A stretch of DNA of 64,000 nt from Eledone cirrhosa (Eukaryota): assembly GCA_964016885.1 (NCBI GenBank), contig OZ024742.1, forward strand, positions 99,882,001 through 99,946,000, given 5' to 3'. Positions 33,550-62,630 of this stretch are shown here, in pieces. Under the pieces are notes generated by a model, which had not been told where the DNA came from, did not search any database, and saw only the letters and a list, made by a program, of their open reading frames with translations. The stretch's first letter is position 1. Each line of letters starts with the position of its first letter. Made by a program: the position numbers and the translations under genes.

Positions 33550-34696
33550 TTTCTGAATTTGTTTAGCAAGATTCTTTATCTGAAACGTGTGTTGAAACCG
33601 ATATTGTTATGCTTTGGGAGGGTCATGTTGCCAATAAGAAACACACTCACCAGTTGCTTTCACTGTGAAAGCAACTGGTGCGTGTGTTTCTTATATATAT
33701 ATATATATATATATTCTTATATTTGGGATGGTCATGTTGCCGGTATTGCCAATAGAAGGAAACAAATGCGCCATATAATTTTCACTTTATCTTTAATGTC
33801 CGTTATTCATTTGGTTATCAAAGTTCTTTCATCACACATTCTGTGACTTCCTCAATGATTATCTGTTTTGTGACTCCAATTTTTCCTGGTCTGAAATTTT
33901 TCCTTCATCTAGTTTATTTTGTGGTGCATTCTATGTGTTTTGTGGCTGTTCATGCGTTTGCGCATGCGTCTGTGTGGTGTGTGTAAGTGTTTTTGTGTGT
34001 GTCGTATCTATGTTTTTTTATGTGTGGAGGGTTTGCATCATTTGCTGTTTGTGTCTTTATTCTGTCTTCAGGCATTAAGGTGTGGGCTGTTACTACTCCA
34101 CTCGTGTTTTCAGTTTAAACTAGGGCATCTTCTATTATGTGAGTGGCCTCCGTAATTTGGCTGAGTGTTGCGTCAGTTCTATGTGTATATAGGATCTTTA
34201 TTTCTATGTTATCTTTGTTATCTTTTGAGATTTCCTGTTCTAGTTTGGCATGGTGGTATAGCACTGATAAGCCTTTCCCCTCCTTAAGTGTTCCTTTAAT
34301 ATCTCTGCTATACTACGGGCTGCATCTCCTATGTATGAAGTTTCAGGAAACACGAATTTGAACCTCAACGTAATATTTTGGTAAATTCATCCTGTTCTGA
34401 TCCTTATTTCTATATATTTTGGCAAAATATTACTTTTTTTTAAATATAAGTCTAATTTCGTTAAAATTTTTTTTGTAAAGACAATAAGTCTCGTGTTTAA
34501 TCAGTACTAGAAGAAATTTGATCATACGTTTGCTGGAAAACGGTTGACTTGCGTTAAAAAATATTAAGAGCCTTAGAAGCTAAAGAAACGTATTTAGATC
34601 GTTATACAACTGTGTCTAAATTTACACATCTTTCTCTGATTCCAAACAATTCTAAAAGTACGGGATAAGGCAATATTTGTTACGGTATAGCCATGC

Positions 34697-34760
34697 GGGT
34701 CCATGGTGTGGTGACTGCTTCATACGCAGAAGGTCTTGAGTTCGAGATTCGCTGGAACCT
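34697..34760 (+). pseudogene. tRNA-Val-derived pseudogene (D-arm deletion; loop reads CAT)
   Basis: GGGTCCATGGTGTGGTGACTGCTTCATACGCAGAAGGTC...TGGAACC. Confidence 0.75.
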
Positions 34761-35359
34761 ATGATAGTATCTAAGATTTTTCGAAAATTTATTGTTTGCA
34801 TTTTTAATTTTTTCTCATATTTCAGATGTTACTGATTATTTTGTTTTAATTATGGAAAGGCAATCTATATATTATAAGTTTGAAAATGAAATTAGCCTAA
34901 TTGTGTCTGACGTTAGTCTAAACAACAATATTAATTACATTCACCTGTTTATATTTAAACATTAACTTTCTTTAGATCGAGACCGTCCGTATGAATATCA
35001 TTCGAGAATAAACAGTTTGCACACACAAGATAGTAATATTCAAAATTATTTGATCATAAGTACGTACGTGATTCCATTGTGTAGCACTTAACACGTCTGC
35101 TTTAAAAACAGAAGACTGTGACTTTGATGCTCAACGGTATATTTTGGTGAATTCATTTATATTGTTCTGATGTTTATCTTCATATATTTTCGCAAACTAT
35201 TTTGAAAAACTAACGTTAATTTTATTAAAGTGAGTTTTAAAAAGTCAAAGAATCTCGAGTTTTCTTAGTACTAGAAAACATGTGTTTATACGTTAGCTGG
35301 GACGCAGCTGACCTGTATTTTAAAACAGTAAGATCCTTAAAACGTATCTGATTATATCT

Positions 35360-35810
35360 CCTTCATCATCTTCGAGCCCTAACTGGCGATTGGGGAAAGC
35401 TGTCCTCTCATCAAATACGCTGCTGTGGGTGCCGCTAGTTGACGGACTCCGATGATGATTTTCTTCCACGCATTTCTATCCATGGCGCTGACAATAGCAT
35501 GGTCGAGATCGATCGATGCAATTTCAGGTCCTTCTCGATTTGTTCTGCCCATGTCTTCTTCGCTGCGCTGCGCTGGGTTCCCCAATAAATAACTCACTGT
35601 CATGAAAAAAGTTGGTGCGGCAGTCTTCTGGTTTTTATCCTGAAGACGTGGCCACTCTACTATAGCCTTCCTTGCCGGGTTTGGTTTTCAATGGTCGGCT
35701 GCTGCTGCTGCTGCTGACATTGTTCTTGGGTGTTCTTGTTTGAGATTTGGTCACGTTGTGAGACACTAAGACAAGACACCAAGACACCTTTGGAGCATCT
35801 CGAGCTTATT
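35360..35810 (-). mobile_element. RTE-type LINE 3' end
   Basis: Minus strand reads DLDHAIVSAMDRNAWKKII and ends in a GAAGATGATGAAG tail. Confidence 0.65.
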
Positions 35811-35829
35811 CAGGTATTATTTGAGGATA

Positions 35830-37062
35830 GTCCAGGTCCCACCCCTTTAGAGGTGGGCAGGTAGGAACAGCCAGAAGAAATGACGGATCTTGATTCTTAG
35901 GGAGATATGAGGCTTCTTCCAGACACTCCAGTGAGGGGATCCAAACTCAAATGTCACAGACCCGATTTGATAGTTGATCTCTGCTATTGACGTCATTTTT
36001 TCCTCTGCACCCAGTGAGCCAAGATAATTGAACTCCCTAACCTACACAATCTGAAGGACGGTCCCAAGCCTGGCTCCAAAAGGAGGAGAGTGGATGCCCT
36101 GCCGAGGTCACCAGCACCAGCAAACTGAGGAAAATAGGTCAGAAACCCATTCATGCTACCGCATCCGGGGCAGCCGTAACGTCAGTATTGGTAACCCAGG
36201 ATATTGATGATAAAGGTACTAATGAACAAACCAAATAACTTTTCATGCTCTAGACAGGCATGTGACCGTCTGGAATGTTCGAACTTGACATCAAGTCAGG
36301 CAGAAAGAGCTCATCAACTGAGGACTCATCAATGTGGCATTTCGATCACGGCACTATCTGAACTGCGACTTACTGCCTCAGGAGCAATGGTCATCATCCC
36401 AAACACAACGTTAACACTCTACTATTCTGGTGGTGACAACCATGAAGCTGGGGTCAGCTTCATGGTTGACTAAATGGCTTCACACAGTGTAATCGCATTT
36501 CAACCAGTGTCCGACTACCAGACAGTCCTCACCATCAATGGAATTATCAATACACACATCCTCTCTGTCTATGTGCACACTGAGATCAGCTCATACACCA
36601 GTAAGGATGACTTCTATTATCAACTACAACATATGATGGACCTGATTCCACAAACTGAAATGACCATCCTCGCTGGCGACCTCAGTGCTCATGTTTGCTC
36701 GGACAAATCTGGTTGGGAGACTACCAAGGCCAATCTGGGGCAGGTAGAAATCAACGACAATGGGCTCTAACAATGGGCTTTCTACCATTCGCTACAACAA
36801 ATATCCTGATCATCTGGAACACCCACATCGAACATCTTCTAAATCATCAGCCCACGTCACGAAATCCGTCCGGAAAGGGGTCGATGATCCTAGACTATTT
36901 GCTTATCAGTGCTCAGTTCGGATCATCAGACCAGAATGTTCGAGCCAAAACTAGACCCGATTGCGGCTCTGACCACAACTTCGTTCGTGCCCGGATTCGC
37001 CTGAAACTCCAACAGGTAAAACGTAAATTGCCGGAAGTGACTAGATTGGACTGGATTCAGCT
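35830..37062 (+). mobile_element. RTE-type LINE 5' part: 5' UTR plus decayed AP endonuclease
   Basis: ITALSELRL, YYSGG..HEAGVSF, ILAGDLSAHV, NDNG, LDYLLIS, CGSDHNFVRARIRL across ORFs 36204-37099. Confidence 0.85.
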
Positions 37063-37486
37063 AGCTTTTCTCAGTCGAGGATCAATAAAATCTGAATAAA
37101 AAAACAAGCGGTTTAGAGTCACAAGATACGAACAATTCAATTAATTGATCAAACGTCTTCATATAGTTCGATAGTGTAGAGGTTATCACGTCTGCTTCAC
37201 TCGCTGAGGCTCGCAAGTTTGAACCTTTGCTTCTACAATCTTTTTTAATCATGTAGTGTCCTGTTTGTTAGTGTCTCATATATTTCACTTCCATTTCTCT
37301 ACACGATGATTTCAACTACCAGTTCTGTATATTTTCTCCATGCTATAACAAAGCTTATCTTCATCATACAACAGTACCAGTCTTTGATACTAAAGTTAGG
37401 TTACCCTTCATATCAACAGCTTATAAATTTACGCATCTTCCACTGAATTCAAACAAGTGTAAATGTGGTTGATAGGGCACTAAATC

Positions 37487-37760
37487 AGTCTAAAGTCTTA
37501 TATAAGCCAGAATGCTTATTTGGCCGATGCTTATCGCGGTTTCATGGTGGGAAGTGACTGAGAGTACAAGACTCTCCCCTTCACAGGACGCCAGTCCATC
37601 GCAGGTTTAAACCCCCAGCTATTGTTGCTACTCATTTTCACCTGAGTATACTGGATCAACGTGTAATGAAGTGTTTTGCTCAAAAACATAACACGCAACC
37701 CAGGAATCGAACCCACAACATTATGATCCAACACCCTTACCACTATCCATGTGCCTCCAC
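37487..37760 (-). mobile_element. Family-2 SINE inserted at the 5' flank of a tRNA module
   Basis: Close copy of 19048-19326. Lies just after the array's GATAGGGCA motif. A tRNA 5' stub follows at 37797. Confidence 0.85.
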
Positions 37761-38580
37761 TATGATGAGGCACTATGTGCAAGAAAATAACGAGGAGGTT
37801 CCATGGTGTAGTGATTATACGTTAGCTGGAACGGAGATGACCTGCAATATTAATCAGTAAGTGTCTTATGAACTAAAGATACATAAATGATTATATCATA
37901 CTATTTAGATCATGAAAGAAACGCAAACAAGCAAACATCTAAACACCCAAACCATGAAAAAAGTGCTCCAAAACGACGAGAACTTATGCAAAATAGGTAA
38001 ATTTTACCTAATGAAAGCTATACCCATTTTCCCAAGGAAGAAATGTCTCACCCACCCCAAAAAGGGCAGGAGATCTCATCGGACAGATGGAGTTTTACTG
38101 GTCTGGAAACGTTTCTAAATATACACATATTTCAGTAAATTGAAACAATTGTAAGAATATGTGATGAGGCAATATTTGTAATAATGTAATCGTATTATTC
38201 CATGGTGTAGAGGTTATCACATCTACTTAACAGGGAGATCGTGGAAACATTTTAGATTTCAATTCTAATAAAAAAAACTTATTTATTTGCATCTTTAATT
38301 TATTCATAACTTTTCCTTATTACTTCTGTTTTTAAAATTATTGAAAGACTCGTTATATAGAGAAGGTTTGAAAATGAAATATAGGAGCTCGTGTGTTCGA
38401 GGACATATGAAGGCAGGTCTAGACAAATCTACCTGTCTTAGAGCTGAACAACTACATTAAATATTTTAGAACTAAACTGAGTTTTATTTATGTAACCGTT
38501 CATAGCATAGTATTTAGATCGTAACTCAACAACTTCTAAATTTACACATCTTCCACCTTTTTATAAAGTTTAAATGTAAA

Positions 38581-38653
38581 TATTCCATAGTGTAGTGGTT
38601 CTCACGTCTGGTTCACACGCAGAAGGTCGTAAGTTCTAAATTCGCTGGAACCT
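38581..38653 (+). pseudogene. tRNA-Val(CAC)-like, degenerate
   Basis: Mismatches in acceptor, anticodon and T stems; T-loop TTCTAAA. Confidence 0.75.
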
Positions 38654-39414
38654 ATCAGAATATCTACACTCGTTAGAAACTTTTATTTTTTTATATTTCC
38701 ATCATTAATTTGTAGTTATTTTTATGATGTTACTGCGTATGTTTTAATTATTGAAAGCCAATATATTTAGAATATGTTTGAAAGATAAATTCATGGCGGC
38801 ATATTTTACAGAATATTACACCATTCACGACAGGTCTGTGAAATTGTGTCTGACCTAAGTCTAGACAACACAATTAATTACATTCACTCCTTTATATATT
38901 CACCTATTTCTCTTGTACAATATTTTTTTTAGATAGAGATCTTTCTCATGAATACTAATCGAGAATAAATAGTTTGCACACACAAGATACATATATTACA
39001 AAACTATTTGATTATAAGTAAGTATGCGACGTGACATATCACGTCTGCAGAAGACCCGTGTCCGAAACTCAACGTAATATTTTGTGTAAATTCATTTATA
39101 TTGTTCAGATTTTTATCTTCATATATTCTGGCATGGCAAAATATTACTATTGAAAACATAAGGCTAATTTTGTTAAAATGTGTTTTGAAAATATCGCATT
39201 TAGTCAAGAATGGAACCCATTTCGTCAAACGTTTGCTGGAACGAGTCTAACCTACGTTATAAAACAGTACCAAACTTAGACGCTAAAGTTAGCTAACAGT
39301 TCATAATAATATTCAGGTGATTAATGAACTAATTCAATTTTACACATCTTTCACTAAGTTGAAGCAAATGAAAATATTTTTGATAAGGAAATATTTGCAA
39401 CATCTGAATAACGT

Positions 39415-39487
39415 GGTTCCATGGTGTAGTGGTTATCACATCTGCTTAACACGCAGAAGGTCGTGAGTTCGAAACTCGCTGGAACCT
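39415..39487 (+). tRNA. tRNA-Val(AAC) on a Val-TAC-type scaffold, intact cloverleaf
   Basis: GGTTCCA/TGGAACC, GTG/CAC, TCTGC-TTAACAC-GCAGA, GTGAG-TTCGAAA-CTCGC; T at position 73. Confidence 0.85.
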
Positions 39488-39704
39488 ATGTTAGTATCTA
39501 AAATTGTTCTTTTTAGTAGCATCTGCAATTTTTTCTTTTATTTCAGATTTTATTGCTGATATTTTAATTATTGATAGCCAATGTATATAGAATGGATTTG
39601 AAACATGATATTCATGACGGCGTAGTTTCCAGGATATTGTACCTTTGAAGATAGGTTTGCGTAATTGTGCTGACCTACGAATAAAGAACAACATTAATTA
39701 CCTT

Positions 39705-39815
39705 CCCCCCGCCGAGGTTAGCTTTACCTTTCATCCTTACGTGGGTCGATAAAATAAAGTATCAGTAATGTACTGGGTAATTGCTGGCCTTGTGCCAAAA
39801 GTAGAAACAATTAAT
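39705..39815 (+). mobile_element. 5'-truncated family-1 SINE
   Basis: Core plus tail, flanked by a repeated ATTAATTACCTTC (possible target-site duplication). Confidence 0.75.
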
Positions 39816-40339
39816 TACCTTCACCTATTTATAAAAACATTCCCCTATTCATATTTGCAGATAATCGTTTCTAGATAGAAACCATCCTTATGAATATAAG
39901 TCGAGAAAAATAGTTTGAAAACACAAGATACGTATAATACAAAATGCTTTGATCAGAATTACGTTCGTGGATTCACGTCTGTTTTACAATCAGAAGACCC
40001 CTATCCGAAACTCAACGAAATATCTTGGTATATTCATATATGTTGTTCTGATTTCTATCTTCTAGTGAAATATTACTTTTGAAAAAATATGCTTAATTTT
40101 GTTGAAATGTGTTTTGAAAAGACATTAAATCTCGAGTTTGATCAGTACTAGAAAGCATTTGATCATACGTTTGCTGGAACTGGGCTGACCAACGTTAATA
40201 AAACAGCAAGAGACTTACAAGCTAAAGATAGGTACCTGATCATATCATAGTATCTACAACGTTAAAAAACTGTTTCTACATTTACACATCATTCACGGAA
40301 TCTAAACAATTCACAAAGAATGTGATACTGTAGTCGAGC

Positions 40340-40412
40340 GATTACATGGTCTAATGGCTATCATATCTACGACACATGCAGAAGGTCGTGAGTTCAAATC
40401 TCGCTGGAACCT
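40340..40412 (+). pseudogene. tRNA-Val(CAC)-like, degenerate
   Basis: Many substitutions in the 5' half; 3' half recognisable. Confidence 0.7.
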
Positions 40413-40550
40413 AATCAAAATGTTTTCAGAAACATTTATTTGCATCTTTTCCATATTACATTACCACGTACTTTTTATATAGAGCAGCTACATTAAGGAT
40501 CTTATGCAAATGTGCTTCATAATGCAATATCTTCAGAAAAATGAGCAAGG

Positions 40551-40623
40551 TGATCAATGGTGTAGTGGTTATAACATCTGATTTACACACAGAAGGTCGT
40601 AAGTTCGAAACTCGGTGGAACCC
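40551..40623 (+). pseudogene. tRNA-Val(TAC)-like, degenerate
   Basis: Broken acceptor and anticodon stems. Confidence 0.7.
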
Positions 40624-41269
40624 GAGAGAGTATCTGCAATGTTTAGAAACATTTTATATATGCATCATTAATTTTTTTTTATCGTTATTTTAAAGATGTT
40701 ACTGCGTATTCTTTAATTATTAAAAGCCTAAATAATAAGTTTGAAAAATAGAGTTCATGAATAAGTTTGAAAAGTGAAATTCATGACAGCATATATTTCA
40801 GAATATTACACCTTTGTAGGCATGTCTGTAAAATAAATTTGAAAGATAAATTTATGACGTCACATTTTACAGGACATTACAACATGGAAGACAGGTCTGT
40901 AAAATTGTGTCTGATTTAAATCTAGACGACAACATTTTTAAATATATTCACGTGTTTATACTTGTACATAAACATTTTTAGATTGAGACATTTCTTATGA
41001 ATATAAGTTGGGAATAAATAGTTTGTACACACAAGCTACATATAATACAAATTTATTTGATCATCTGTGTCCGTCGGGGACGAGGTGCTCCCAGTGAATG
41101 GAACGGCATTTTCTTATAATAGTGACTGATGTTGTGGGCGATGGATTCGGGGACAGTGACTATACCAACATTGTTGAAGTATTTTGTAGAATTTAAGGGT
41201 TGAATTATGAATGAACAAAGAATGAACTATCTTAATAGTAGTCAATATATATTACCCCAGTACGTATGT

Positions 41270-41341
41270 GATTCCATTGTGTAGCAATTATCAGGTCTGT
41301 TTTACAAACAGAAGACCACGAGTTCGAAACTCAACGGAATA
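41270..41341 (+). pseudogene. Diverged tRNA-Val(TAC)-like subfamily
   Basis: GATTCCATTGTGTAGCAATTATCAGG-TCTGT-TTTACAA-ACAGA..GTTCGAAAC. Relatives at 35070, 45615, 48841 (-), 55981 and 61219. Confidence 0.65.
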
Positions 41342-41691
41342 TTTTGTGTCAATTCATTTGTGTTGTCTAATTTTTACTTTCATATAATTTGGCGAAATAG
41401 TACGTTTTTAAAAATAAGACTAATTTCCTTAAAATGTGTTTTGCAAAGACAATAAATCTCGTGTTTTGTCAGTAATAGAAAATGTTTGATCATAGGTTTG
41501 CGGAAACAGGGCTGACTAGCATTACAAATAGTATGTGACATGGAAGCTGAAGACTCGTAATTGATTTTATCATAGTATATTTTTTAAATCCTGTAGTTTC
41601 ATGGTTGTTACATATCATATATTTCTTTCACGAAATAGAAGCAAATGAAAATGTGCTTGATATGTCAACGTATGTAACTAAACGCTGACGT

Positions 41692-41764
41692 GGTTCCATG
41701 GTGTAGTGGTTATCACATCTACTTAACACGCAGAAGGTCGTGAGTTCGAAACTCGCTGGAACCT
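41692..41764 (+). tRNA. tRNA-Val(AAC)-like, one anticodon-stem mismatch
   Basis: As 39415 but with TCTAC/GCAGA. Confidence 0.65.
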
Positions 41765-42130
41765 ATGAGGGAGTCTACAATGTGTAGAAACTTTTTATAT
41801 TTGCATCATTTTTTTTGTGATTTTAATATGTTACTGCGTATTCTTTAACTATTGAAAGGCAATATATATAGAATAAGTTTGAAAGATAAATCTATGACGT
41901 CATATTTTACATGACTTTATAATATTGAAGACAGTTCTGTGAAATTATGTTTGACCTAATTCTAGCAACAACATTAATGACATTCACCTATTTTTAAATA
42001 TATTCATGTTAAAGTTAGGTAACCGTTCATAATATTTAGGTCATTAATGAACTAATTCAATGTTACACATCTTTCACTAAAGTGAATGAAAATGAAAATA
42101 TGTTTGATAAAGCAACAATTGTAACCAAGC

Positions 42131-42203
42131 AATTCCATGGTGTAGTGGTTATCACATCAGCTTCACACGCAGAAGGTCGTGAGTTCGAAACTCGCTGGAA
42201 GCT
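42131..42203 (+). pseudogene. tRNA-Val(CAC)-like, broken acceptor stem
   Basis: AATTCCA/TGGAAGC; TCAGC/GCAGA. Confidence 0.7.
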
Positions 42204-42618
42204 AATTAAAACCTAGTTTCAGTGTTTTGAGAAACTTTTATTTGCCCCTTTTTTATATTAACTTACAACATACTCTTTATTTAGAACAACTACATTAAGT
42301 AGCTTAGAAATAAACTTAGATCAAAACTAGTTGTAACTTTTGCTTCTATATTTATTTTAATCCTGTAGCGTCGTATTTGTTAGTGTCTGATATATTTCTC
42401 CCGTTTCTCTACACGATTTCAACTACCAGTTCTGTATATTCTACCTATGCTGTAACTCAGCTCACTTGCATCATACAACAGTACCAGACTTTGACACTAA
42501 AGTTAGGTAACATTTAATATAGTATTTATATCGTAAATCAGCAGCTTCTAAATTTCCACTGAATCGATCAAATGTAAATGTGCTTGATAAGGCAATATCA
42601 GCAAGTATGGAAGCATGG

Positions 42619-42691
42619 GGTTCCATGGTGTAGTGGTTATCACATCTGCTTTACACGCAGAAGGTCGTGAGTTCGAAACTCGCTGGAACCT
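42619..42691 (+). tRNA. tRNA-Val(TAC), intact cloverleaf
   Basis: All stems pair; loop TTTACAC; A and B boxes intact; T-run about 27 nt downstream. Confidence 0.88.
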
Positions 42692-43484
42692 GAGAGAGTA
42701 TCTACAATGATTTGAAACTTTTTTTTATATTTGCCTCATTAATGTTTTGTTATGTTAAAGATGTTACTGCGCATGTTTTAATTATGAAAGGCAATATATA
42801 TATAGAATATGTTTGAAAGATAAATTCATGACGACATTTTTACATGATATTACACCATTGAAGACAGGTATGTGAAGTTATGTCCAACCTATGTCTAAAC
42901 TACAGCAGAAAGTTTTATATGCCACATTTTCATGTTACCTTACAACATACTTTTAATAGAGAACAATTACATTAAAGATCTTAGAAGTGGATTGAGGTTT
43001 ATATACACATTTAAGTTTACTATTCTGCCACACTAGCGTTTCTACGTTGAGAGCGTCCCTAAAAATCTAAATGAAGCATAAATATTTTACACTCTAAGGA
43101 TACATATTACAAAATTATTTGGTGAAATGTCTGTAAATGGTTCACAAGTGCTTGAAACAAAGATGTTCGAAACTCGCAGGAAACTTTGATAAACTGTGGT
43201 TTGATTATTCTTTTGGTAAGCCTGTAGTATTATGTTTGTTAGAAATCATACACCTCTTCCGTTTATCTATACTATGATTTCAATTTCCAGTTCTGTATCT
43301 TTTACCAATGCTGGGTAGGGCTGACCTCCGTTATATTAGAGTATCAGCCTTAGAGGTTAAAGTTAGCTAACTGTTCATAATATTTAAGTCATTATTGAAC
43401 TTATTAAATTTTACATATCTTTCACTAAATTGAAGCAAATGGACATGCATTTCATAAGGCATTATTTTCAACAGCTCAAAGCCC

Positions 43485-43557
43485 GGTTTCATGGTGTAGC
43501 GGTTATCTCATCTGCTTAACACGCAGAAGGTCGTGAGTTCGAAACTCGCTGGAACCT
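43485..43557 (+). tRNA. tRNA-Val(AAC)-like, D-stem mismatch
   Basis: GGTTTCA (G-U wobble); GTG/CTC. Confidence 0.55.
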
Positions 43558-44350
43558 ATGTTAATATCTAAACTTTTGGGGGGGGGGGGGTTTATTTGCA
43601 TCTGTAATTTTTTTTATTTCAGATTTTATTGCATATTTTTTTTTCAATTATTGAAAGCTAATGTATTTAGAATGGATTTGAAAAATGAAATTCATGACAA
43701 CATATGTTCTAGGATATTGTACATCTGAACGTTGGGTTGCGTATTTGTATTTGACCTATGACTAAACAACAACATTGATTACATTCACCAATTTATAAAT
43801 ACATTCACCAATATATTCACCTGTTATATTCACACATTATCTTTTCTAGATCGAAACCATCCTTTTGAATATAAGTCGAGAATAAATAGTTTGGAAAAAC
43901 AAGAAACGCATAATACAAAATTATTTGATCAGAATCACGTTCATGGTGCAGTATATATGACGTCTGTTTATAGGAAGAAGACCCGTGTCCGAAACTCAAC
44001 GGAATATCTTGTGTAGATTCATTTATGTTGTTCTAGATTTTATCTTCATATATTCCGGCAAAATATTATTGTTAAAAATAAGGCTAATTTTGTTAAAATC
44101 TGTGTCAAAAAGACAACAAATCTCTAGGTTGAGCAATAGTAGAAAAGATTTGATTACATGTTAGCTGAAACTTGACTAACCAGCAATATAAAACAATTAG
44201 AGACTTAAAAGCTAAAGATGGATACGTAACGGTTCATATAATAATGTTTATATCGTTAAACAAATGTTTTTAAAAGTACACACCATTCACGAAATTGAAA
44301 CAGTTCTCAAAGTATGTGATAAGGCAATATTTGTAATAGTGTTAACATAT

Positions 44351-44423
44351 AGTTCCATGGTGTACTGGTTATCGCGTCTGATTTACACGCAGGAGGTCGT
44401 GAATTCGAAACTCGCTGGAGCCT
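44351..44423 (+). pseudogene. tRNA-Val(TAC)-like, degenerate
   Basis: Multiple stem mismatches. Confidence 0.7.
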
Positions 44424-44865
44424 CTTTCTGTATACAATTCTGATAGAAAAAACTTCTTTTTGTGTATCTTTAATTAATTTCGTAATGTTTGTTTCTAAAA
44501 TGAATGAAAGACTCGATATATAGAGTATATTTGAAAATGAAATATCGTATATATGTATTCCAGGGTATATGAAGGCAAGTCTACATAAATTTGTGCCTGT
44601 CTTCGAGCTGAACAACTACATTAGATATGTTAGAAATAAACTGACGATTAGAAACACATTCAGGTTAATATATATCACACTAGTTTTTCTCAGTCGAGAG
44701 TATCAATATAAATCTGAGTCAAACAAAAGAGGTTTAGAGTCATAAGATATGTACAATACAAAATGATGTGATTAAACATCTTCATATAGTCCCATAGTGT
44801 AGTTGTTATCACATCTAATTAATAAAGTGAAGAAGGTTAGTTCAAAACTAATTATTGGAATAGAA

Positions 44866-49783: not shown

Positions 49784-49856
49784 AGGTTCCAGTGTGTTTC
49801 GAATTAACGACCTTCTGTGTGTAAAGCAGACACGTTAACCACTACACCATGGAACC
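49784..49856 (-). pseudogene. tRNA-Val(TAC)-like, degenerate
   Basis: Acceptor stem intact; D, anticodon and T stems damaged. Confidence 0.7.
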
Positions 49857-50781: not shown

Positions 50782-50859
50782 ATGTTCCAGCAAGTTTCGA
50801 ACTCACGACTTTCTTCGTGTTAAGTAGATTTGGTAACCAAATCACCACAACATGGAATC
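50782..50859 (-). pseudogene. tRNA-Val(AAC)-like, degenerate
   Basis: Insertion in the D arm. Confidence 0.65.
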
Positions 50860-50954
50860 ACACGATTACATTATTACAAATATTGCCGTTTATTACAATT
50901 GTTTCAATTTAGTGCGAGATGTGTAATTATGGAAACATTTGTTTACCGATCTAA

Positions 50955-51395
50955 ATAATTATTTCTACTTTTGGTACAAGGCCAGCAGTTATCCCAGTGT
51001 ATTACTGGTACTTTATTTTATCGACCTTGTAAGGATGAAAAGCAAAGTTAACCTCGGCGAAATTTGAACTCAGACCATAAAGGGGCGTAACTCTATGCTT
51101 CAAAGCATAGAGTTGAAAATGAAATATCGGAGCTCGTATGTTCCAGGGCATATGAAGGCAGGTCTACATGAATTTATCTTAGAACTGATCAACTACATTA
51201 AATCTAAATAATTGTTTCTACTTTTGGCACGAGGCCAGCAAATACCCAGTGCATTACTGGTACTTTATTTTATCGACCCCGTAAGGATGAAAGGCAAAGT
51301 CAACCTCGGCGGGATTTGAACTCAGATCGTAAAGGGACGTAACTATGCTGGAAAGCATGGCGTCCGACCCTCTACCGATTCTGCCAATCCACCAT
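50955..51395 (-). mobile_element. Two family-1 SINEs (50955-51110, 51208-51395) in the inverted array block
   Basis: Both tails follow ATCTAAATAAT, which recurs after the second head at ~51393. Confidence 0.85.
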
Positions 51396-52030
51396 CTAAA
51401 TAATATGATGTAGTTATTTATGGATCTTTTGCTTCTAAGCCACTTATTGTTTAATATTGCAGATCAACCACAGTCCAGCTAACGTATAATAACATGTTTT
51501 CAAGTACTGACAAAAATCGGAATTTATTGTCTTTTCAAAACACTCTTTAACTAAATTAGCCTTATTTTTTTCAAAAGTAATATTTTGACACAATATAAGA
51601 AGGTATAAAATCAGAACAACATTAATGAATTTACACAAAATATTCCATTCAATATCGAACACGTGGTCTTCTGCAGATGTGATATGTGCTACACAATAGA
51701 ATCGCGTACGTTCGTTATGATGAAATAATTCTGTATTATACATATCTTGTGTGTCCAAACTATTTATTCTCGACTTATACTCATAAGAACGGTCTCTATC
51801 TAAAATGGCAATATACAGGTATAAATAGGTGAATGTAGTGAATGGTGTTGTCTAGGCGGAGGTGAGACACAATTTCACAGACCTGTCTGTAAAATAGGCC
51901 TTCATGAATTTATCTTTCAAACATATCCTATATATATTGTTTTTAAATTATAAAAAATCCGCAGTAATTTCTTTAAAAAGTTAATGATGCAAATATTAAA
52001 AAAGTGTCTAAACATTGTAAACACTCTCTC

Positions 52031-52103
52031 AGGTTCCAGCGAGATTCGAATTAACAACCTTCTGTGTGTTAAGCAGATGTGATAACCACTACACCATGGA
52101 ACC
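52031..52103 (-). pseudogene. tRNA-Val(AAC)-like, T-arm damaged
   Basis: 5' half perfect; T stem reads GTTAA/CTCGC. Confidence 0.7.
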
Positions 52104-52943
52104 TCACGCGTGCTCCCCTGCTGGTATTACCTCATCAAACATATTTACATTTGTTTGAATTCAGTGAAAGATGATTAAATTTGGAATCTGTCGATTTATG
52201 ATCTAAATACTATATTAAATGTTATCTAATTTTAGCGTCAAAGGTTAGTACTGTTGTATGATGCAGGTGATCTGAGTTACAGCATAGGTAGAATATACAA
52301 AACTGGTAGTTGAAATCATCGTGTACAGAAATGGGAGAAATGAGACACTAACAAATACGACGCTATAGGATTAAAACAAATATAGAAGCAAAAATTCCAA
52401 CTAGTTTCGAATTTTAACGACTAAGGCTGGTACTCTAATATAACAGAAGGCAGCCCTGTCTCAGCAATGCTAAAACATACAGAACTGGAAAAATAATCAT
52501 TGTGTAGAGAAATGGAAGTGAAATATGGGACACTAACAAACACGGTACTGTGGGATTAAAACAAATAAAGAAGCAAAAGTTCCAACTAGTTTCGAACTAG
52601 CTTTTTTCACCTTATACTCTGGAACCATATGAAGACAAAGGTATTATACATATCTTGTGTGTCTAACCTAATTATACTTGTCTTAGAATTTTACAGATGA
52701 TCCCGACTTAGAAAAGCATTTTATCTTCATGTATTCCGGTAAAATATTACTTTTGCAAAAATTAGGCTAAATTTATACGTTAGCTGAAACTTGGCTGACC
52801 AGCAATATAAAACAGTAAGAGCCTTAAAAGCTAAATATACGTAACTGACCGCATTTACATCATTAAGCAACTGTTTTTAAATTTACACATATTTCCCGTA
52901 ACCTAAACAATTCACAAATTATATGATTTTTCAGTATTCATGT

Positions 52944-53016
52944 GGTTCCATGGTGTAGTGGTTATCACATCTGCATCACACGCGGAAGGTTGTGAGTTCG
53001 AAACTCACTGAAACCT
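52944..53016 (+). pseudogene. tRNA-Val(CAC)-like
   Basis: Acceptor C:A mismatch; loop ATCACAC. Confidence 0.65.
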
Positions 53017-53724
53017 AATTGAAATGGTTTTAGGAACTTTTATTTGCATCGATTTCATATTAACTTAAAACATACTCTTTATTTTGAACAACTACATTAA
53101 GGATCTTAGAACTAAACTGAGTTTTATAAAGACATTCAGGTTTTATATCCTGGCACACAAGCTTTTCTAATTCGACAGCATCCCTAAAAATCTAAGTCAA
53201 GTATAATTACTTTTCACACACAAGATATTATTTGGTGAAATGTCTATATAAATGTCTATAGCTTAATGGTTATTACGTCTGCTTTACACGCATTTGTACG
53301 AAACTAGATAGAAGCTTCGATACACTGTTCCTTTTTTTTTAAATCTAGTAGTGTTATGATTGTAACAAATCATAGATTTTTTCTCTTTATCTACACGATG
53401 ATTTCAATCGTAATTTATGTATGTAAAAGTATTAAGAAAAATAACAAAACAACGGCATAGTACATGGAAGAAATATATTAGCTTAACACTTGAAATAGCA
53501 GGAAGAAAGTCTCAACGATTCGGATGCTATTCCTATATTTTACATATATTGGAAAAAGGCTGACTGTGTTATACAACAGTACCTTCCTTAGACGTTCTTG
53601 TTAGATAACCGTTCATAATATTTAGGTCATGAATGAACTAATTGAATTTTACACATCTTATACTTAATTGAAGCAAATGAAAATGTATTTGATAAGGCAA
53701 TATACGTAGCCCCCACATTGGTGT

Positions 53725-53799
53725 GACTCCGTAGTGTAGTGGTTAAACCATCTGCTTTACACGCAGAAGTTTGTGAGTTAAAAAAAAATCACTGGATAC
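53725..53799 (+). pseudogene. tRNA-Val(TAC)-like, degenerate
   Basis: Anticodon arm intact; T loop replaced by an A run. Confidence 0.65.
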
Positions 53800-55543
53800 G
53801 TTGTTAGTACCTAAGATTAAGAATTTTAATTTTTCTGTTTTCCATTTTTTTCTTTTATTTCTGATTTTACAACTTAATTTTAATTATTTAACGCCAGTGT
53901 AGAATGGGTTTGAAATTGAAATTTAAGATATGTTTGTGTAATTGTGTCTGAACTATGACTAAATAACAACATTGATTACCTTCACCTGTTTATAAATACA
54001 TTCACCAATTAATACTAGCACATTATCTTTTCTAGATCGAAACCCTCCTCGTGAATATAAGTCGATAAAAACTAGTTTGGAAAAACAAGATACGCATAAA
54101 CTTGCATATTATCTTTTTTTTAGATCGAGACCATTCTTATGAATAAAAGTAGAGAATAAATAGTTTGGACACACAAAATACGCATTATATAAAACTATTT
54201 GATCATGTGTACATACGTTATTTCATTGTGTAACACATATCGGGTTGTTTTATAAATAGAAGACGTGTTCAAAACTGAACGGAATAATTTGTGTATTCAT
54301 TAATGTTGTTCTGACGTTTATTTTCATATATTCTGGAAAATATTTAGGAAACATACGGCTAATTTAATTAAAATACGTTTTGAAAAGACAATAAATTCAG
54401 GTTTTGGTCAGTACTTGAAAACATATTATTATACGTTAGCTGGAACGGGGTTGACCTGCAATATTAAACAGTAAGTGGCTTAGAAACTAAAGATACATAA
54501 ATGATTGTATCATACTATTTACATCGTGAAAGAAACGCACACCAGGAAACCTCTAAAAACTCAAACGGAGAGTACCATGAAAAAAGTGCCCCAAAACGCG
54601 GAGAAGTTAGCCAAAATATGGAGATTTTACATATTGAAAGACATACCCATTTCCACAAGAGAAGACATCCCTCACCCACAGCAATATTGTTACACGGAGG
54701 GAGGGAATTTTACTGGTCTGGAAACGTATCTAAATATACACATATTTCAGTAAATTGAAACTATTATAAGAATATGTGATTAGGCAATATTTTTAATAAT
54801 GTTCCTTGGTGTAGACGTTATTATCTACTTATCACGCGTGAGTTCGAGACTCCCTGCAATTTATTCGTTCATTTTTCTCATTTGTGTTTTATGAAAATAT
54901 TGAAAGACTTTTTATATAGAGTAGGTTTGAAACTGAATTACCTGTCATGTGTTCGAAGCGGGACACATACGAAGGCAGGGCAGCATAAAGGTAACCAAAT
55001 TAGTGCAGAACAACTGCATTAAATATGTTAGTATTAAACTGAGCTTTATACACACACAAAGGTTGATATATCTCACACTAGCTTTTCTCAGTCGAGAGCA
55101 TCAGTATATATATAAGTCAAGAATAAACAGTTTAGATTCCCAAGATACTTATAATACAAAATGATTTGTTGAAACCTTTGTATGTGCTTCTATATCGTAG
55201 AGTCTGTCACCTCTGCTTCACATGCCGAGGGCCGCTATTTCGAATCTCGCTGAAATCTTGTTTCTCTGTTGTTTTTTTAATTATGTTATGTAGTGTTTCT
55301 TACAGTACTATACATATCTTCCATTTCTCTATACCATGATCGCAATTACCAGTTCTGTATATTTTATCTATGATGTAACGGTGCTTACCTCCATCATACA
55401 ACAGTACAACTGTACCATGTAACAGCTTTTGTCGCTAAAGTTAGATCGTAAATCAACAGCTTCTAAATTTAGACATCTTCCACCGAATTCAAGCAAATGT
55501 AAATGTGTTCGATAAGGCATTGTCTGCAGGAAAATCAGCATGG

Positions 55544-55616
55544 GATTCCATGGTGAAGTGGTTATCATATCTACTTTACACGCAGAAAGTTGTGAGTTCG
55601 AAACTCGCTGGAACCT
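55544..55616 (+). pseudogene. tRNA-Val(TAC)-like, degenerate
   Basis: Mismatches in acceptor and anticodon stems. Confidence 0.7.
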
Positions 55617-56492
55617 ATGAGAGTGTCTAATACGGTTAGAAACTTTTTTTTAAATATATTTGCATCATTAACTTTTTGTGTTTAAGATATTACTGCGTAT
55701 TCTTTTATTATTGAAAGGCAATATATAGAGAATATATTTCAAAGATAAATTTATGATGTCATGTTTTACAGGACATTACAACATTGAAGACAGGTCTGTG
55801 AAATTGTGTCTGCTTTAAGTCTAGACAACACCATTAATTATATTCACCTATTTATAAATACCTATTTATACTTCACATTATCATTCTTAGATCTAGACCG
55901 CCCTTATCAATATAAGTCGAGAATAAAGTTTGGACACACATGATTGGTATTATACAATACTATTTGATAATAACATATGTGACTCCATTGTGTAGCAATT
56001 ATCAGGTCTGTTTTACAAGCAGAAGACCACGAGTTCGAATCTCAACGGAATATTTTGTGTGAATTCATTTATGTTGTCTAATTTTTACCTTCATACAATT
56101 TGGCAAAATATTACATTTAAAAAAAAAAGGCTAATTTCCTTAAAATGTGTTTTGTGAAGACAATAAATCTGGTGTTTTGTTTGTTAATACTAGAAAATGT
56201 TTGATCATAAGTTGACTGAAACAGGGCTGACTAGCATTACAAATAGCATGGGCTGTGGAAGCTGAAGACGAGTAATTGATTATATCATAATATATATTTT
56301 TAAATCCTGAAATTACATATCATATATTTCTTCCGTTTATCTATACGATGATTTCAATTGGTATAGTATACATGAACTTAATAAAGCTCAGTTTTAGTTC
56401 TAAGATGTTTCAGGTAGTTGTTCTATATAAAAGTATGTGGTAAGGTAATATGAAAAAGTTGAAATAAAAGATTCTGTAAAAAGATTTTAATT

Positions 56493-56565
56493 AAGTTCCA
56501 GCGAGTTTCGAACTCACGGTTTTCTGCATGTGAAGCAGATGTGATAACCACTACACCATGGAATC
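56493..56565 (-). pseudogene. tRNA-Val(CAC)-like
   Basis: GATTCCA/TGGAACT acceptor mismatch; the rest is mostly intact. Confidence 0.65.
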
Positions 56566-57157
56566 ATACGATAACTGAATAACAAATATTGACTTATCAT
56601 ATACTTTGTGAATTGTTTAGATTCCGTGAAATATGTATAAATTTAAAAACAATTGTTTAAAGATCTAAACATGGTCAATTACGTATTTTTAGCTTCTAAG
56701 GCTCTTACTGTTTTATATTGATGATCAGCCAAGTTTCAGCTATTTGAATAGGTTTAAAAAATTAAATTCATGACGTCATATATGCCAGAATAGTATACCT
56801 TTGAAGGAATTTCCGAAAATGTGTTTGACATAAAGCTAAAGAACATTAAATACATTCATCTATTTATATATATCGGAATATATATACTTACACATTATTG
56901 TTGCTTCATTGACACCGTCATTATGATTATAATTCGAACATGAAAATTTTGGACCAACAAGATACATACAATACACATTTATTAAACATCAGTGTCCAAG
57001 GGGCAGATAGTGCGTGGCCCCTATTTACTTATAAAAGTGAGAGTTGGGTGGGCGAATGAGAAGGTGGCAGTGACTAGGCGAGTATTGCTGAAGTATTTTG
57101 TAAAGTTTAAGGATTAAAGTGATGATAATGGAATGTATGCAACCAAAACAATAACGT

Positions 57158-57199
57158 GGTGCCATGGTGTAGTGGTTATCACATCTGCTTCACATTCAG
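57158..57199 (+). pseudogene. 5' half of a tRNA-Val(CAC)-like copy
   Basis: Truncated after the anticodon loop by a deletion. Confidence 0.65.
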
Positions 57200-57645
57200 T
57201 TTGGAAATACAAGATACACATAATACATAATTATTTGATCAGTATTACGTTCATGGATTCGTGGTTTTGTACATATGACGTTTGTTTATAGGAAGAAACC
57301 CGTGTACGAAACTCAACGAAATATTTTGTGTAGATTCATCTATGTTGTTCTGGATTTTATATTCATATATTCCGGTAAAATATTACTTTGGAAAAAAAAA
57401 GGCTAATTTTGTTAAAATGAGTTTCGAAAAGACAACAAATATCGAGGCTGGACAGAGGTAGAAAATATTTGATTATACGTTAGCTGAAACTTGGCTGAAA
57501 ACAGTAAGAGCGTTAGAAGCTAAAGATACGTAACTGACCATACTTAGATCTTTAAACAATTGTTTTTAAATTTACACATATTTCACGGATCTAAACAATT
57601 CACAAAGTATATGATAAGTCAATATTTGTTATTCAGATATCGTAT

Positions 57646-57705
57646 GGTTCCATGGTGTAGTGGTTATCACATAGAAGGTCGTGAGTTCGAAACTCGCTGG
57701 AACCT
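57646..57705 (+). pseudogene. tRNA-Val copy lacking the anticodon arm
   Basis: Matches the consensus except for a 13-nt deletion: CACAT|AGAAGG. Confidence 0.8.
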
Positions 57706-58083
57706 AATTAAAGCCTTTTTCAGAAACTTTTATTTCCATCTTTTTCATATTACCCTACCACATACTCTTTATATAGAACAACTATATGAAACATCTTAGA
57801 ACTAAAACTGAGCTTTATTAACACATTCATGTATACTATACTGCCACACTAGCTATTCTAAATCGAGAGCATCCGTAATATACTGTATAAAGTATGAACA
57901 TTTTACACTCACAAGATACGTAATACAAAATTATTTGGTGAAATTTCTGTAAATGGTTCTATATTTTAATGGATATCAGGTATGATTCACACAAATATGT
58001 ACGAAACCCGCTGGAACCCTTGATACACTGGGGGGTTTGGGGGGAGGGGGTGTTCTTGGTTAAATCCCGTAATGATATCTGTA

Positions 58084-58235
58084 CACGAATATATAATTAT
58101 ATATATATACATATATTAAAATAACAGATTAAAGTTTAAGCAAAGAATCGCTGCAAATAATCCCTTAACGGGATCTTCTGAAACTAAAATAATGAATCTG
58201 TGAACGCAGAAGTAAATATTTCGAAAAACATTACA
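58084..58235 (-). mobile_element. Penelope-like 3' terminal fragment
   Basis: Reverse complement of ~18165-18292. Confidence 0.6.
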
Positions 58236-58374
58236 CACTATATATATACACACACTATATATACACACACTATATATACATATATATACACACACATATA
58301 TAGCGTCATAATGTCGTATGCGGACAGCCAGACATACAGACAGATATTATAAGGGCGCAACGTTATATCTATGT

Positions 58375-58589
58375 ATCTATCTAAAGAGGAAGACTAAGAA
58401 TTATAGAGAGAGATCGCTAAATCGCCTAATGCGGTCCCTAGGGCATTGAACATTTGAAATTTCTTTTGCTCAAAACACTCATAGGACCATAAGTATTACA
58501 TGTGTAAAGTTTGAAAACAATCGGTTGGGTGGTTCTCGAGTTTTAGGGAGTCAGACAGACAGTCATTCTCTGTTTTAGATATATAGATG
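58375..58589. mobile_element. Probable Helentron/HINE-like non-autonomous fragment
   Basis: AAGTTTGAAAACAATCGG..GGTTCTCGAGTT..GACAGACAG..TATATAGAT end resembles DINE-1/HINE termini (recalled pattern). Confidence 0.45.
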
Positions 58590-58958
58590 ACGTCTGTTTA
58601 TAGAAAGAAGATCCGTGTCCGAAACTCAACGAAATATTTTGTGTAGATTCATCTATGTTTATCTAGATTTTATATTCATATATTCCGGTAAAATATTACT
58701 TTGGAAAAAAAAGGATAATTTTGTTAAAATGTGTTTCGAAAAGACAACAAATATCGAGGCTGGACAGAGGTAGAAAATATTTGATTATACTTTAGCTGAA
58801 ACTTGGCTGAAAACAGTAAGAGCGTTAGAAGCTAAAGATACGTAACTGACCATACTTAGATCTTTAAACAATTGTTTTTAAATTTATACATATTTCTCGG
58901 AATCTAAACAATTCACAAAGTATATGATAAGTCAATAAATGTTATTCGGTTATAGTAT

Positions 58959-59031
58959 GGTTCTATGGTGTAGTGGTTATCACATCTGCTTCACACGCAG
59001 AAGGTCGTGAGTGCGAAACTCGCTGGAACCT
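58959..59031 (+). tRNA. tRNA-Val(CAC)-like with a T55G change
   Basis: All stems pair (one extra G-U); T loop TGCGAAA damages the B box. Confidence 0.5.
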
Positions 59032-59653
59032 AATCAAAACCTTTTTCAGAAACTTTTATTTCCAGCTTTTTCATATTACCCTACCACATACTCTTTATAT
59101 AGAACAACTATATGAAATATCTTAGAACTAAAACTGAGCCTTATTAACACATCCATGTATACTATACTGCCACACTAGCTTTTCTAAATCTGGAGCATCC
59201 GTAATATACTATATCAAGTATAAACATTTTACACTCACAAGATACGTAATACAAAATTATTTGGTGAAATTTCTGTAAATGGTTCTATAGTTTAATGGAT
59301 ATCAGGTCCGCTTCACACAAATATGTACGAAACTCGCTGGAACCCTTGATACACTGGGGTTTATTTTGTATTGTTTTTTTTTTTTTTTCCTTGTTAAATC
59401 CCGTAATGATATGATTATTTGAAATCACACATCTCTTCCGTTTATCTACACGATGATTTCAATTTCCAGTTCTCCATGTTTTACCAATGCTGGGAGAGGG
59501 CTGACCTCCGTTATATTACAGTGCCAGCCTTAGTCGTTAAAGTCAATAATATTTAGGTCATTAATGAACTATTTCAGTTTTACACATCTTTCACTAAATT
59601 GATGGAAAATGAAAATGTTTCATAAGGCAATATTTGTAGCCACTGAATGTACT

Positions 59654-59726
59654 AGTTCCATGGTGTAGTGGTTTTCACATCTGCTTAACACGCAGAAGGT
59701 CGTAAGTTCGAAACTAGCTGGAACCT
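59654..59726 (+). pseudogene. tRNA-Val(AAC)-like
   Basis: A1:C72 and T-stem mismatches. Confidence 0.65.
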
Positions 59727-60779
59727 GTGATAAAAACTTGATAATTCTTTTTCTTTTTTTTTTTTTGGCACCTGTCTGAATCTTTTCTTTTATTTCAGAT
59801 TGTATTGTTTATATGTTAATTATTGAATGCCGCTGCATAGAGAATGGATTTGAAAACTGAAATTCATGAGAGCAGTTGTCCAGGATATTGTACCTTTGAA
59901 GGTATCTTTGCGTAATTGTGTCCGCCGTATGACTAAACAACAACATTGACCAGCTTCACCTATTTATAAATACATTCACCTATTATAATTACACATTATC
60001 TTTTGTAGATCGAAACCATCATTTTTAATATAAGTCGTAAATAATTTGGAAAATCAAGATACGCATAATACAAATTTATTTTAGCAGGATTACGTTCACA
60101 GATTCGTGGATTCAAGGTGTAGTAACGAAATATTTGGGTAGATTCATTTATGTTGTTCTGGATTTTATCTTCATATAGTCCAGCAAAATATTGCTTTTCA
60201 ACATTATTTGATCAAAAGTCTTCATATGTTTCCATAGTGTAGTTGTTATCACGTCTAATTAACAAGGTGAAGAAAGCTAGTTCGAATCTAGTTGGAACAT
60301 TTGCTTCTTTATTTGTTTTAATCCCACAGTACCGTGTTTGTTATTAAAGAGTTTCATATTTCATTTCCGTTTCTCTGATGATTTCAATTTCCAGATCTGT
60401 ATGTTTTACTAATGCTGAGACAGGGCTGACTCCCGTTATATTACTGTACCAGCCTTAGTCGTTAAAGTTCGAAACGAGTTGGAACTTTTGCTTCTATATT
60501 TGTTTTAATCCTATAGCATTTATTATAGTATTTAGTCTCATATATTTCTCCAGTTTCTCTACGATGATTTCAACTACCAGTTCTGTATATTCTACCTATG
60601 ATGTAACTCAGCCCACTTGCATCATACAACAGAGCCAACCTTTGACACTATAGTTCGGTAACATTTAATATAGTATTTAGATTGTAAATCAACAGCTTCT
60701 AAGTTTAGACATATTTCACTGAATTCAGACAAATGTAAATGTGTTTGATTAGGCAATATCTCCTGGCGAGTAAGTATGG

Positions 60780-60852
60780 GGTTCCATGGTGTAGTGGTTA
60801 TCACATCTGCTTTACACGCAGAAGGTTGTGAGTTCGAAACTCGCTGGAACCT
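60780..60852 (+). tRNA. tRNA-Val(TAC), intact cloverleaf
   Basis: Differs from 42619 only at position 48 (C>T). Confidence 0.85.
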
Positions 60853-61583
60853 AAGAGAGAGTCTGCAATGTTTAGAAACGTTTTATATTTGCTTTATTAA
60901 ATTTTTTTGTTAAAGATGTTACCGCTTATTCTTTAAGTATTAAAAGGCAATATATATAAAATAACTTTGAAAGATAAATTTATGACGTCATATTTTACAG
61001 GACATTGAGAACAGTTCTGTGAAATTATGTCCAACCTATATCTAAACAACAATATAATTATTAATTATATTCTCCTCTTTTTAAATATACGTCCACCTAT
61101 TTCAGTTTATATTATCTTTTTAGATCGAGATCGTTCTTATGAAAATTAGTCGAGCATAAATAGTTTGGACACACATGATACGTATTATGCAAAACTATTT
61201 GATCATAAGTACGTACATGATTCCATTGTGTAGCAATTATCACGTCTGCAGCAGACTCTTGTCCGAAACTCAACGCAATATTTTGTGTAACTTGATTTAT
61301 GTTGTTCTGGCAAAATATTACTTTTGAAAAAAATAAAATTAATTTTTTTTTTAATGGGTTTTGAAAAGACAATAAATATCGAGTTTCGTCGAGAATAGAA
61401 ACCATTTTGTCCTATGTTTGCTGGAACGAGGCTGACCAGCAATATAAAACAGAATCTAAAGATACGTAACTGACCAAATTTAGATCGTTAAACAAATGTT
61501 TTTGAATATACACATCTTTCATAGAATTGAAACTATTCACAAAGTATGTGATAAGGCAATATCTGTTACGGTATAATTTATAC

Positions 61584-61643
61584 GGTTCCATGGTGTAATG
61601 GTTAACACGCAGAAGGTTGCGAATTCAAAACTCACTGGAGCCT
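61584..61643 (+). pseudogene. tRNA-Val copy with a 13-nt D/anticodon-arm deletion
   Basis: GGTTA|ACACGCAGAAGG; TTA microhomology. Confidence 0.7.
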
Positions 61644-62534: not shown

Positions 62535-62630
62535 CATACATATACATACATACATATATATATATATATACATACATACATATATATATACATATATGTA
62601 TATATATATATATACATACATATATATATA
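62075..62630. repeat. Compound (TA)n/(TACA)n microsatellite
   Basis: Direct reading. Confidence 0.95.

Follow-up and report, generated by a model that had tools for sequence, protein, structure and literature searches.

Our analysis of a partly decayed tRNA-Val array in Eledone cirrhosa revealed an approximately twofold excess of substitutions at positions -20..-1 upstream of the genes, which most likely (probability roughly 0.88) arises from germline Pol III initiation mutating the opened DNA upstream of active genes. The variable segment alters by point substitution, keeps its ancestry and is most divergent at -13..-10, and the excess is lacking in long-decayed copies. The array occupies 34.7-61.9 kb of the window, by which we mean the whole 64,000-nt stretch of DNA that was analysed.

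Organisation of the tRNA-Val array

All 13 ARAGORN calls in the window are Val tRNAs with the anticodons AAC, CAC or TAC, and an Rfam scan of the window returned 16 matches to RF00005 and nothing besides tRNA. The Val identity of the genes had gone unnamed in the original prediction. As cytosolic tRNA-Val genes with a type 2 Pol III promoter should, they combine a cloverleaf carrying a Val anticodon with a downstream T4+ run, which in 18 of 18 modules follows after 8-43 nt and is frequent by chance in AT-rich DNA. A GATAAGGCAATAT-like motif, accepted with at most 4 mismatches and at most 60 nt upstream of a tRNA-like start, precedes 28 of 41 sites resembling tRNA 5′ ends; the window contains 77 matches to it, compared with 40.8 +/- 5.9 in shuffled sequence. 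At 21 of the 28 sites the distance between motif and tRNA is exactly 20 nt, and the remainder have 21 nt (n=4), 19 nt (n=1) and 12 or 9 nt (n=2), which bears out the predicted layout of motif, 20 nt and tRNA. One of the four 21-nt spacings is a probable chance match in a decayed copy. The five segments quoted in the original prediction occur in the window exactly as given, and the coordinates quoted with them mark tRNA starts or ends. Contrary to the original claim, the modules are mostly not young: flanks differ at about 0.2 of sites within families, and many tRNA bodies are decayed or truncated. Every module descends from a single tRNA-Val gene together with its 5′ flank, and this shared ancestor explains both the common motif and why the distance is usually 20 nt. 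The features are as follows, with the inner flank being the segment between motif and tRNA.

34664..61960, both strands: tRNA-Val array of rearranged, partly decayed modules, with motif-bearing tRNA-Val and older degenerate tRNA copies
34664..38240, +: family C modules whose tRNAs are broken (starts 34697 and 38196), plus a truncated copy (37797)
39382..39487, +: family A module; motif 39382-39394, 20-nt inner flank, intact tRNA-Val(AAC) 39415-39487 (62.2 bits)
41659..41764, +: chimeric module, upstream A-like and downstream B-like; tRNA-Val(AAC) 41692-41764
42106..42203, +: tRNA-Val(CAC) called by ARAGORN, inner flank reduced to 12 nt
42586..42691, +: family B module; motif 42586-42598, 20-nt inner flank 42599-42618, intact tRNA-Val(TAC) (65 bits)
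43453..43557, +: family A module, tRNA-Val(AAC), inner flank 19 nt
44318..44423, +: family C module, decaying tRNA-Val(TAC) (33.5 bits)
46166..47062, +: two decaying family A modules, tRNA starts 46199 and 46990
47743..47848, +: family C module, tRNA-Val(CAC)
49449..49889, -: decaying family B (tRNA start 49521) and family C (49856) modules
52031..52136, -: family B module, tRNA-Val(AAC)
52944..53016, +: tRNA-Val(CAC), motif deleted
53691..53797, +: family A module, T-arm damaged, inner flank 21 nt
55511..55616, +: family B module, tRNA-Val(TAC)
56493..59031, both strands: recent family C triplicate; 56565 (-) CAC, 57646 (+) anticodon arm deleted, 58959 (+) CAC
59621..59726, +: family A module, tRNA-Val(AAC)
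60747..60852, +: family B module, intact tRNA-Val(TAC) (65 bits)
61550..61643, +: family C module, internal tRNA deletion, inner flank 21 nt
35070..61960, both strands: long-decayed tRNA-Val copies of families D, E and F, serving as internal control
35070, 41270, 45615, 48912 (-), 51703 (-), 55981, 61219: decayed family E
37165, 44788, 46788, 50374 (-), 55186, 60228: decayed family D
about 43134, 48085, 53252, 57947, 59281, 61888: decayed family F

Divergence upstream of the genes

Families were chosen by hand and include 18 of the 24 motif-bearing modules and 14 of the 19 decayed copies. In families A-C, several members of which are themselves broken today, the inner flank at -20..-1 shows 0.433-0.438 differences per site (JC 0.65) compared with 0.200-0.220 (JC 0.26) at -110..-34 (column permutation, p=5e-5). 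The aligned modules thus confirm the anticipated excess over other flanks. Decayed families D-F, whose inactivity is taken from their sequence decay, show no such excess (0.206 inner vs 0.224 outer, p=0.67). The per-position maxima lie at -13 (0.78), -12 (0.72) and -10 (0.67); divergence at -20..-14 is below this peak, and +74..+83 just 3′ of the tRNA is also raised (0.41 per site, and 0.31 in decayed copies). The hypervariability is real, but it does not form the sharp 20-nt box that had been described. The 65 inner-flank changes, polarised by majority, comprise 30 transitions and 35 transversions; in this small and partly saturated sample, C>T and G>A changes did not stand out.

Such a profile could also arise without hypermutation, if -20..-1 were neutral and its surroundings were held back, either because selection acts on an extended upstream element or through gene conversion. 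Between family majorities divergence is indeed lowest at -33..-21 (0.09) and low at -58..-47 (0.16) compared with 0.61 at -20..-2, a comparison that is partly circular as the rows were anchored on the motif; within families, the difference between motif and outer flank is not significant (0.160 vs 0.200, p=0.17). However, the outer flanks of the motif-bearing families are about as divergent as the decayed-copy flanks (0.220 vs 0.218) and as the far-downstream flanks of families A and B (0.19 and 0.21), and so look like a neutral baseline. Since the inner flank is about twice as divergent as the far-downstream flanks, the data argue for acceleration and not only for relaxed constraint. Gene conversion tracts, moreover, would need to jump 20 nt between two converted blocks. 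We therefore consider constraint or conversion of the surroundings an unlikely explanation.

Ancestry of the 20-nt segments

All 24 compared segments are distinct, in line with the claim that they are nearly all different, but they are related to each other, with a mean identity of 0.40 vs 0.26 for shuffled segments. Inner-flank identity tracks the identity of the upstream (Mantel p=0.0005) and downstream (p=0.001) flanks. In the family C triplicate (56565/57646/58959) upstream flanks are 96-98% identical and inner flanks 80-95%, so that close paralogs, which had been thought to share a 20-mer, have similar and not identical segments. Nor are they the only ones, as the pairs 41692/46990, 46199/46990, 40551/55544 and 38196/44351 also reach at least 80% identity.

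CRISPR arrays and tRNA-processed multiplex guide cassettes combine a constant block, a 20-nt variable segment and a further constant block. The modules resemble them superficially, and their near-constant segment length between two conserved blocks would fit 20-mers that were inserted or acquired, either as CRISPR-like spacers or as footprints of an element targeting tRNA 5′ flanks. In contrast to CRISPR spacers, however, the segments are inherited: their identity follows module ancestry, alignments show substitutions and 1-nt indels and no replacement, and family-specific ends are retained. A search of the species' own genome with three of the 24 20-mers found no second exact copy that could have served as donor, and matches with two mismatches (3, 0 and 3) were at the level of reversed controls (0, 1 and 4), so that a donor or target of these three within this genome is unsupported. 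No associated genes were seen among the long ORFs of the window, read by eye. Acquisition of the segments is thus largely refuted and extremely improbable; on the alignments, the 20-mers are point-mutated, inherited homologs.

Other arrays and the motif genome-wide

A second, younger and independent Val array is located at G000:C1:266.95-267.10 Mb (C1 array). Its plus-strand genes show a diversity of 0.253 in the inner compared with 0.066 in the outer flank, or, in parsimony steps per site, 2.45 vs 0.88 (p=1.2e-4), with a wider peak at -15..-8. On the minus strand, 88 intact-looking Val-TAC genes taken together lack the excess (1.05 vs 1.04 steps per site, p=0.55); the mutagenesis reading here needs the added assumption that these genes are less active. 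The array contains 84 head-to-head tRNA-Val pairs, 121 bp apart, in which only one of the two intact genes carries the footprint: this gene has the motif 20 nt upstream, and its footprint-free intact partner has it 19 nt upstream. In a third, probably dead class the inner flank is nominally slightly higher than the outer one (0.081 vs 0.044). Among distinct C1 bodies position 34 is A, C or T and never G, and positions 35-36 are nearly fixed, a pattern that fits genes kept functional. TRF reported no repeat in one stretch of this array, the unit exceeding its 500-nt period limit.

In a Thr array without the motif, a narrower peak was found at -14..-10 (0.47-0.54) and a trough at -34..-22 (0.10); its whole -21..-2 bin is not higher than the outer flank (0.196 vs 0.243) in an ungapped comparison, in which indels inflate the outer bin.

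Exact genome matches to the motif followed by 20 nt and G numbered 112 compared with 10 for a control, and at least 72 of them (72 of the 100 listed) lie at the tRNA-Val arrays covered here. At a spacing of 19-21 nt the motif preceded none of 23 tRNA calls of other families (16 loci, mostly the Thr array and one dispersed repeat), which points to an inherited tRNA-Val flank. That the motif is a Pol III element used throughout the genome is rejected as far as sampled.

Relation to known tRNA footprints

According to Thornlow et al. 2018 (PMC6130373), the inner 20 nt of the tRNA 5′ flank are about 4x diverged with a peak 12-15 nt upstream, the footprint is about 5x stronger in active than in inactive genes, and variability drops at the TBP-binding position, about 25 nt upstream. 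Our array agrees in the affected region, in a nearly equal peak, in the weaker 3′ rise and in a much weaker signal in inactive copies. Near -25, divergence is lowest between families, as it is in the Thr array, and is not significantly reduced within families. Unlike that study, we compared paralogs within one genome and not orthologs or SNPs, activity was deduced from gene integrity, the effect is 2-4x and uncalibrated in time, and a C>T bias was not detected. The footprint has also served as an activity predictor (PMC6961574) and has been described in nematodes (PMC13010820). In the human germline, rare SNVs and de novo mutations, in place of the paralogs of one assembly used here, revealed a raised rate confined to active genes and not pseudogenes, without strong strand asymmetry, and TFIIIB-triggered hotspots were proposed upstream of RNU genes (bioRxiv 10.1101/2022.08.20.504670). 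The Arabidopsis Ser-Tyr-Tyr cluster (as described in PMC13437025) similarly has whole duplicated modules, flanks in position-specific families and an AT-rich upstream region at about -35..-20; our array differs in its animal genome, its one tRNA-Val body with three anticodons, its many decayed copies and its inversions. No title describing this array was among the matches listed for octopus tandem tRNA clusters, which is not proof of absence.

The original prediction had also raised the speculation that the cassettes make a library of distinct short guide RNAs, released as leaders by RNase P. The distinct segments of mostly 20 nt would suit such a library, and there are reviews on tRNA-derived small RNAs. 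However, the segments are point-mutated homologs, near-matches to three of them stay at control level, and the 93 genes of the larger C1 array share just 29 different segments, the most frequent of which occurs 16 times. Moreover, the same peak is present at the Thr genes lacking the motif, and with leaders of roughly 2-5 nt, as given in PMC6130373, the peak at -13..-10 would probably fall upstream of where transcription starts. A guide library is thus unsupported and highly improbable.

Together, the match to the published profile, its lack in long-decayed copies and its recurrence at other arrays support the predicted footprint of Pol III transcription-associated mutation. From established Pol III biology, TFIIIC would bind the A and B boxes inside the gene and set TFIIIB/TBP on the AT-rich stretch at -33..-21; the promoter would melt directly downstream, and the exposed strand would mutate, with selection purging changes in the tRNA body and not in the flank. 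By its position, the motif could plausibly place TFIIIB.

The phenomenon is already known, having been reported in human, mouse, fly, Arabidopsis and nematodes, and would thus not surprise a specialist. The array provides a clean example, since live and dead duplicated tRNA modules adjoin and the footprint can be read from a single assembly, with no second genome needed. The C1 head-to-head pairs represent a natural experiment on the determinants of Pol III activity and its mutagenesis. It is conceivable, though doubtful, that the footprint records, gene by gene, how Pol III is used in the germline and that only one gene of each C1 pair fires. If so, a one-base change in spacing, or mutually excluding TFIIIB complexes, would silence the whole Val-TAC set.

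Results

The window (G000:C3:99.88-99.95 Mb) belongs to an AT-rich genome of 3.0 Gb, and its repeats may be of cephalopod type. ARAGORN called 13 tRNA genes, spread over 39.4-60.9 kb of the window, all Val with AAC, CAC or TAC anticodons. The 16 Rfam matches in the whole window were every one tRNA, with no match to any other family. A BLAST search with one intact gene as query added many decayed copies, and a single tRNA body is common to every copy in the array. The window contains the following features:

4162-6517 (+): broken frames resembling a non-LTR retrotransposon reverse transcriptase with a C-terminal endonuclease (by eye)
34.7-61.9 kb (both strands): intact and decayed tRNA-Val copies
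35800-37100 (+): decayed LINE-like fragment (by eye), breaking into the array start
45298-45351: GC-rich hairpin followed by CTAG, detected as an inverted repeat, which we take to resemble a Helitron 3′ end
62622-63997: long, almost perfect palindrome with two 612-nt arms (98% complementary) separated by 30 nt and composed of a unit of about 540 nt; it may be a foldback element or have arisen in assembly

The layout described in the original prediction, a motif (about -33 to -21) at a fixed distance from the mature tRNA, was recovered. Of 41 candidate tRNA 5′ ends, 28 are preceded by the motif (at most 4 mismatches), with a spacing of exactly 20 nt at 21 of them, 21 nt at four, and 19, 12 and 9 nt at one each; a deletion removed it in three more modules. 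The five intervening segments quoted there are correct, and the statement that nearly all of them differ also holds, since the 24 segments compared (spacing 19-21 nt; modules 37797 and 41270 excluded) are all distinct.

These segments were inherited rather than acquired. Their mean ungapped identity is 0.395, compared with 0.264 ± 0.005 after shuffling, and it correlates with the identity of both the upstream (Mantel p=0.0005) and the downstream flank (Mantel p=0.001). By their flanks the modules fall into three families (A, B and C), each recognisable also by 20-mer ends of its own. A whole-genome search with three segments found no second exact copy, and this, together with the correlation with flank ancestry and the family-specific ends, counters acquisition. 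The more speculative proposal, that the array produces a library of short leader RNAs, is unsupported: the suggested target search, run for these three segments on the species' own genome, gave 3, 0 and 3 matches at two mismatches, the level of the reversed controls (0, 1 and 4).

To obtain per-position divergence, 18 of the 24 modules were aligned family by family, leaving out chimeric or replaced flanks (40551, 41692, 57158) and near-duplicates (50859, 57646, 58959). As the original prediction had anticipated, pairwise difference per site reached 0.433 in the inner flank (-20 to -1) compared with 0.220 in the outer flank (-110 to -34; column permutation, p=5e-5), with maxima at -13, -12 and -10. 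It was 0.173 in the tRNA body and 0.407 at +74 to +83; the motif, at 0.144, was not significantly below the outer flank (column permutation, p=0.17). Three families of long-decayed tRNA copies inside the same modules served as internal control (14 of 19 copies, after removal of one near-duplicate and of four whose upstream DNA had been replaced). These 14 show no inner-flank excess, the inner flank (0.19-0.21) and outer flank (0.22) being alike. Outer flanks diverge equally in motif-bearing and decayed families and can therefore fairly serve as the neutral reference, against which the inner flank has evolved faster. In the small, partly saturated sample of inner-flank substitutions, neither C>T nor G>A changes were over-represented, the excess fell mainly on A and T, and GC of the inner flank was 0.40 versus 0.27.

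A younger tRNA-Val array on another contig (G000:C1:266955000-267103000) comprises about 185 genes (187 ARAGORN calls in 170 kb), with 84 of 87 head-to-head pairs spaced 121 bp. Its plus-strand genes replicate the inner-flank excess: among these 93 genes, whose motif lies at 20 nt, 29 different segments occur, and inner-flank diversity is 0.253 versus 0.066 outside (2.45 versus 0.88 parsimony steps per site, p=1.2e-4). No overall inner-flank excess was seen in the 88 minus-strand Val-TAC genes (motif at 19 nt), although these appear as intact as their partners. On one tree of 57 distinct head-to-head units, the inner flank took 2.25 steps per site for plus and 1.10 for minus genes (p=0.009), with tRNA bodies at 0.97 for both. 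The minus-strand gene may be less active than its partner; recent homogenisation or small numbers could also explain the absent excess. A third class, 57 minus-strand copies of the Val body whose anticodon is AGC and whose acceptor stem has two mismatches, was amplified together with the array; these are probably pseudogenes, and still show a slight inner rise (0.081 versus 0.044). Intact minus-strand genes without the excess and an inner rise in a probably dead class run against the simple picture, as does the substitution spectrum described above.

Among Val-body copies in the window (39415-60852) and in the genomic stretches L031-L049, one body carries AAC, CAC and TAC through position 34; GAC was not seen, and CAT, AAT, CGC and CCC occur occasionally. 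In the younger array the wobble position likewise varies (A, C, T, never G), with positions 35-36 near-fixed.

None of 23 other tRNA calls is preceded by the motif at this spacing, and most exact matches, among the matches listed, lie at Val arrays; the motif is the ancestral Val flank, positioned where TBP is expected. A tRNA-Thr array (G000:C1:243640001-243700000; 79 ARAGORN calls) lacks it and has its own conserved AT-rich upstream stretch. In the main class there (43 of 110 copies, 37 distinct), variability peaks at -14 to -10 and is quiet at -34 to -22, the inner bin as a whole not exceeding an outer bin inflated by indels.

Intact tRNA-Val genes also occur at G000:C2:217.05 Mb (L048) and 216.76 Mb (L047); their upstream flank is like the one found in decayed family E of the window, and by eye their inner flanks vary between copies. 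Separately, a dispersed tRNA-like element, likely carried by a transposable element, lies at 10 unlinked sites on contigs C1-C5 and C28 (about base 1500 of stretches L053 and L055-L063), with near-identical flanks (60 nt upstream, 20 nt downstream) and GAC, AGC, GGC, GGT and GTC anticodons.

Discussion

The window copies share common descent and show an excess of point substitutions that peaks at defined positions and is missing in decayed copies, which supports the conservative reading of the original prediction, a mutational footprint of Pol III transcription. According to the literature, TFIIIC places TFIIIB upstream of the gene (PMC13437025), promoter melting begins near -10 relative to the start site (PMC6066478) and tRNA leaders are short (PMC6130373). 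These Val genes would be, or would formerly have been, transcribed in the germline, and the divergence peak may mark where the promoter opens, for the most part ahead of the transcript start.

The footprint described in PMC6130373 covers the same 20 bases of inner 5′ flank, with divergence about four times higher, a peak 12-15 nt upstream, close to the maxima found here, an effect in active genes about five times that in inactive ones, and reduced variability at the TBP site about 25 nt upstream. In other studies, divergence of the 20-nt flank serves as an activity predictor (PMC6961574), the footprint extends to nematodes (PMC13010820), and human germline data confirm Pol III mutagenesis, absent from pseudogenes (bioRxiv 10.1101/2022.08.20.504670). 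The array of Eledone cirrhosa is thus a fresh instance of an already known phenomenon.
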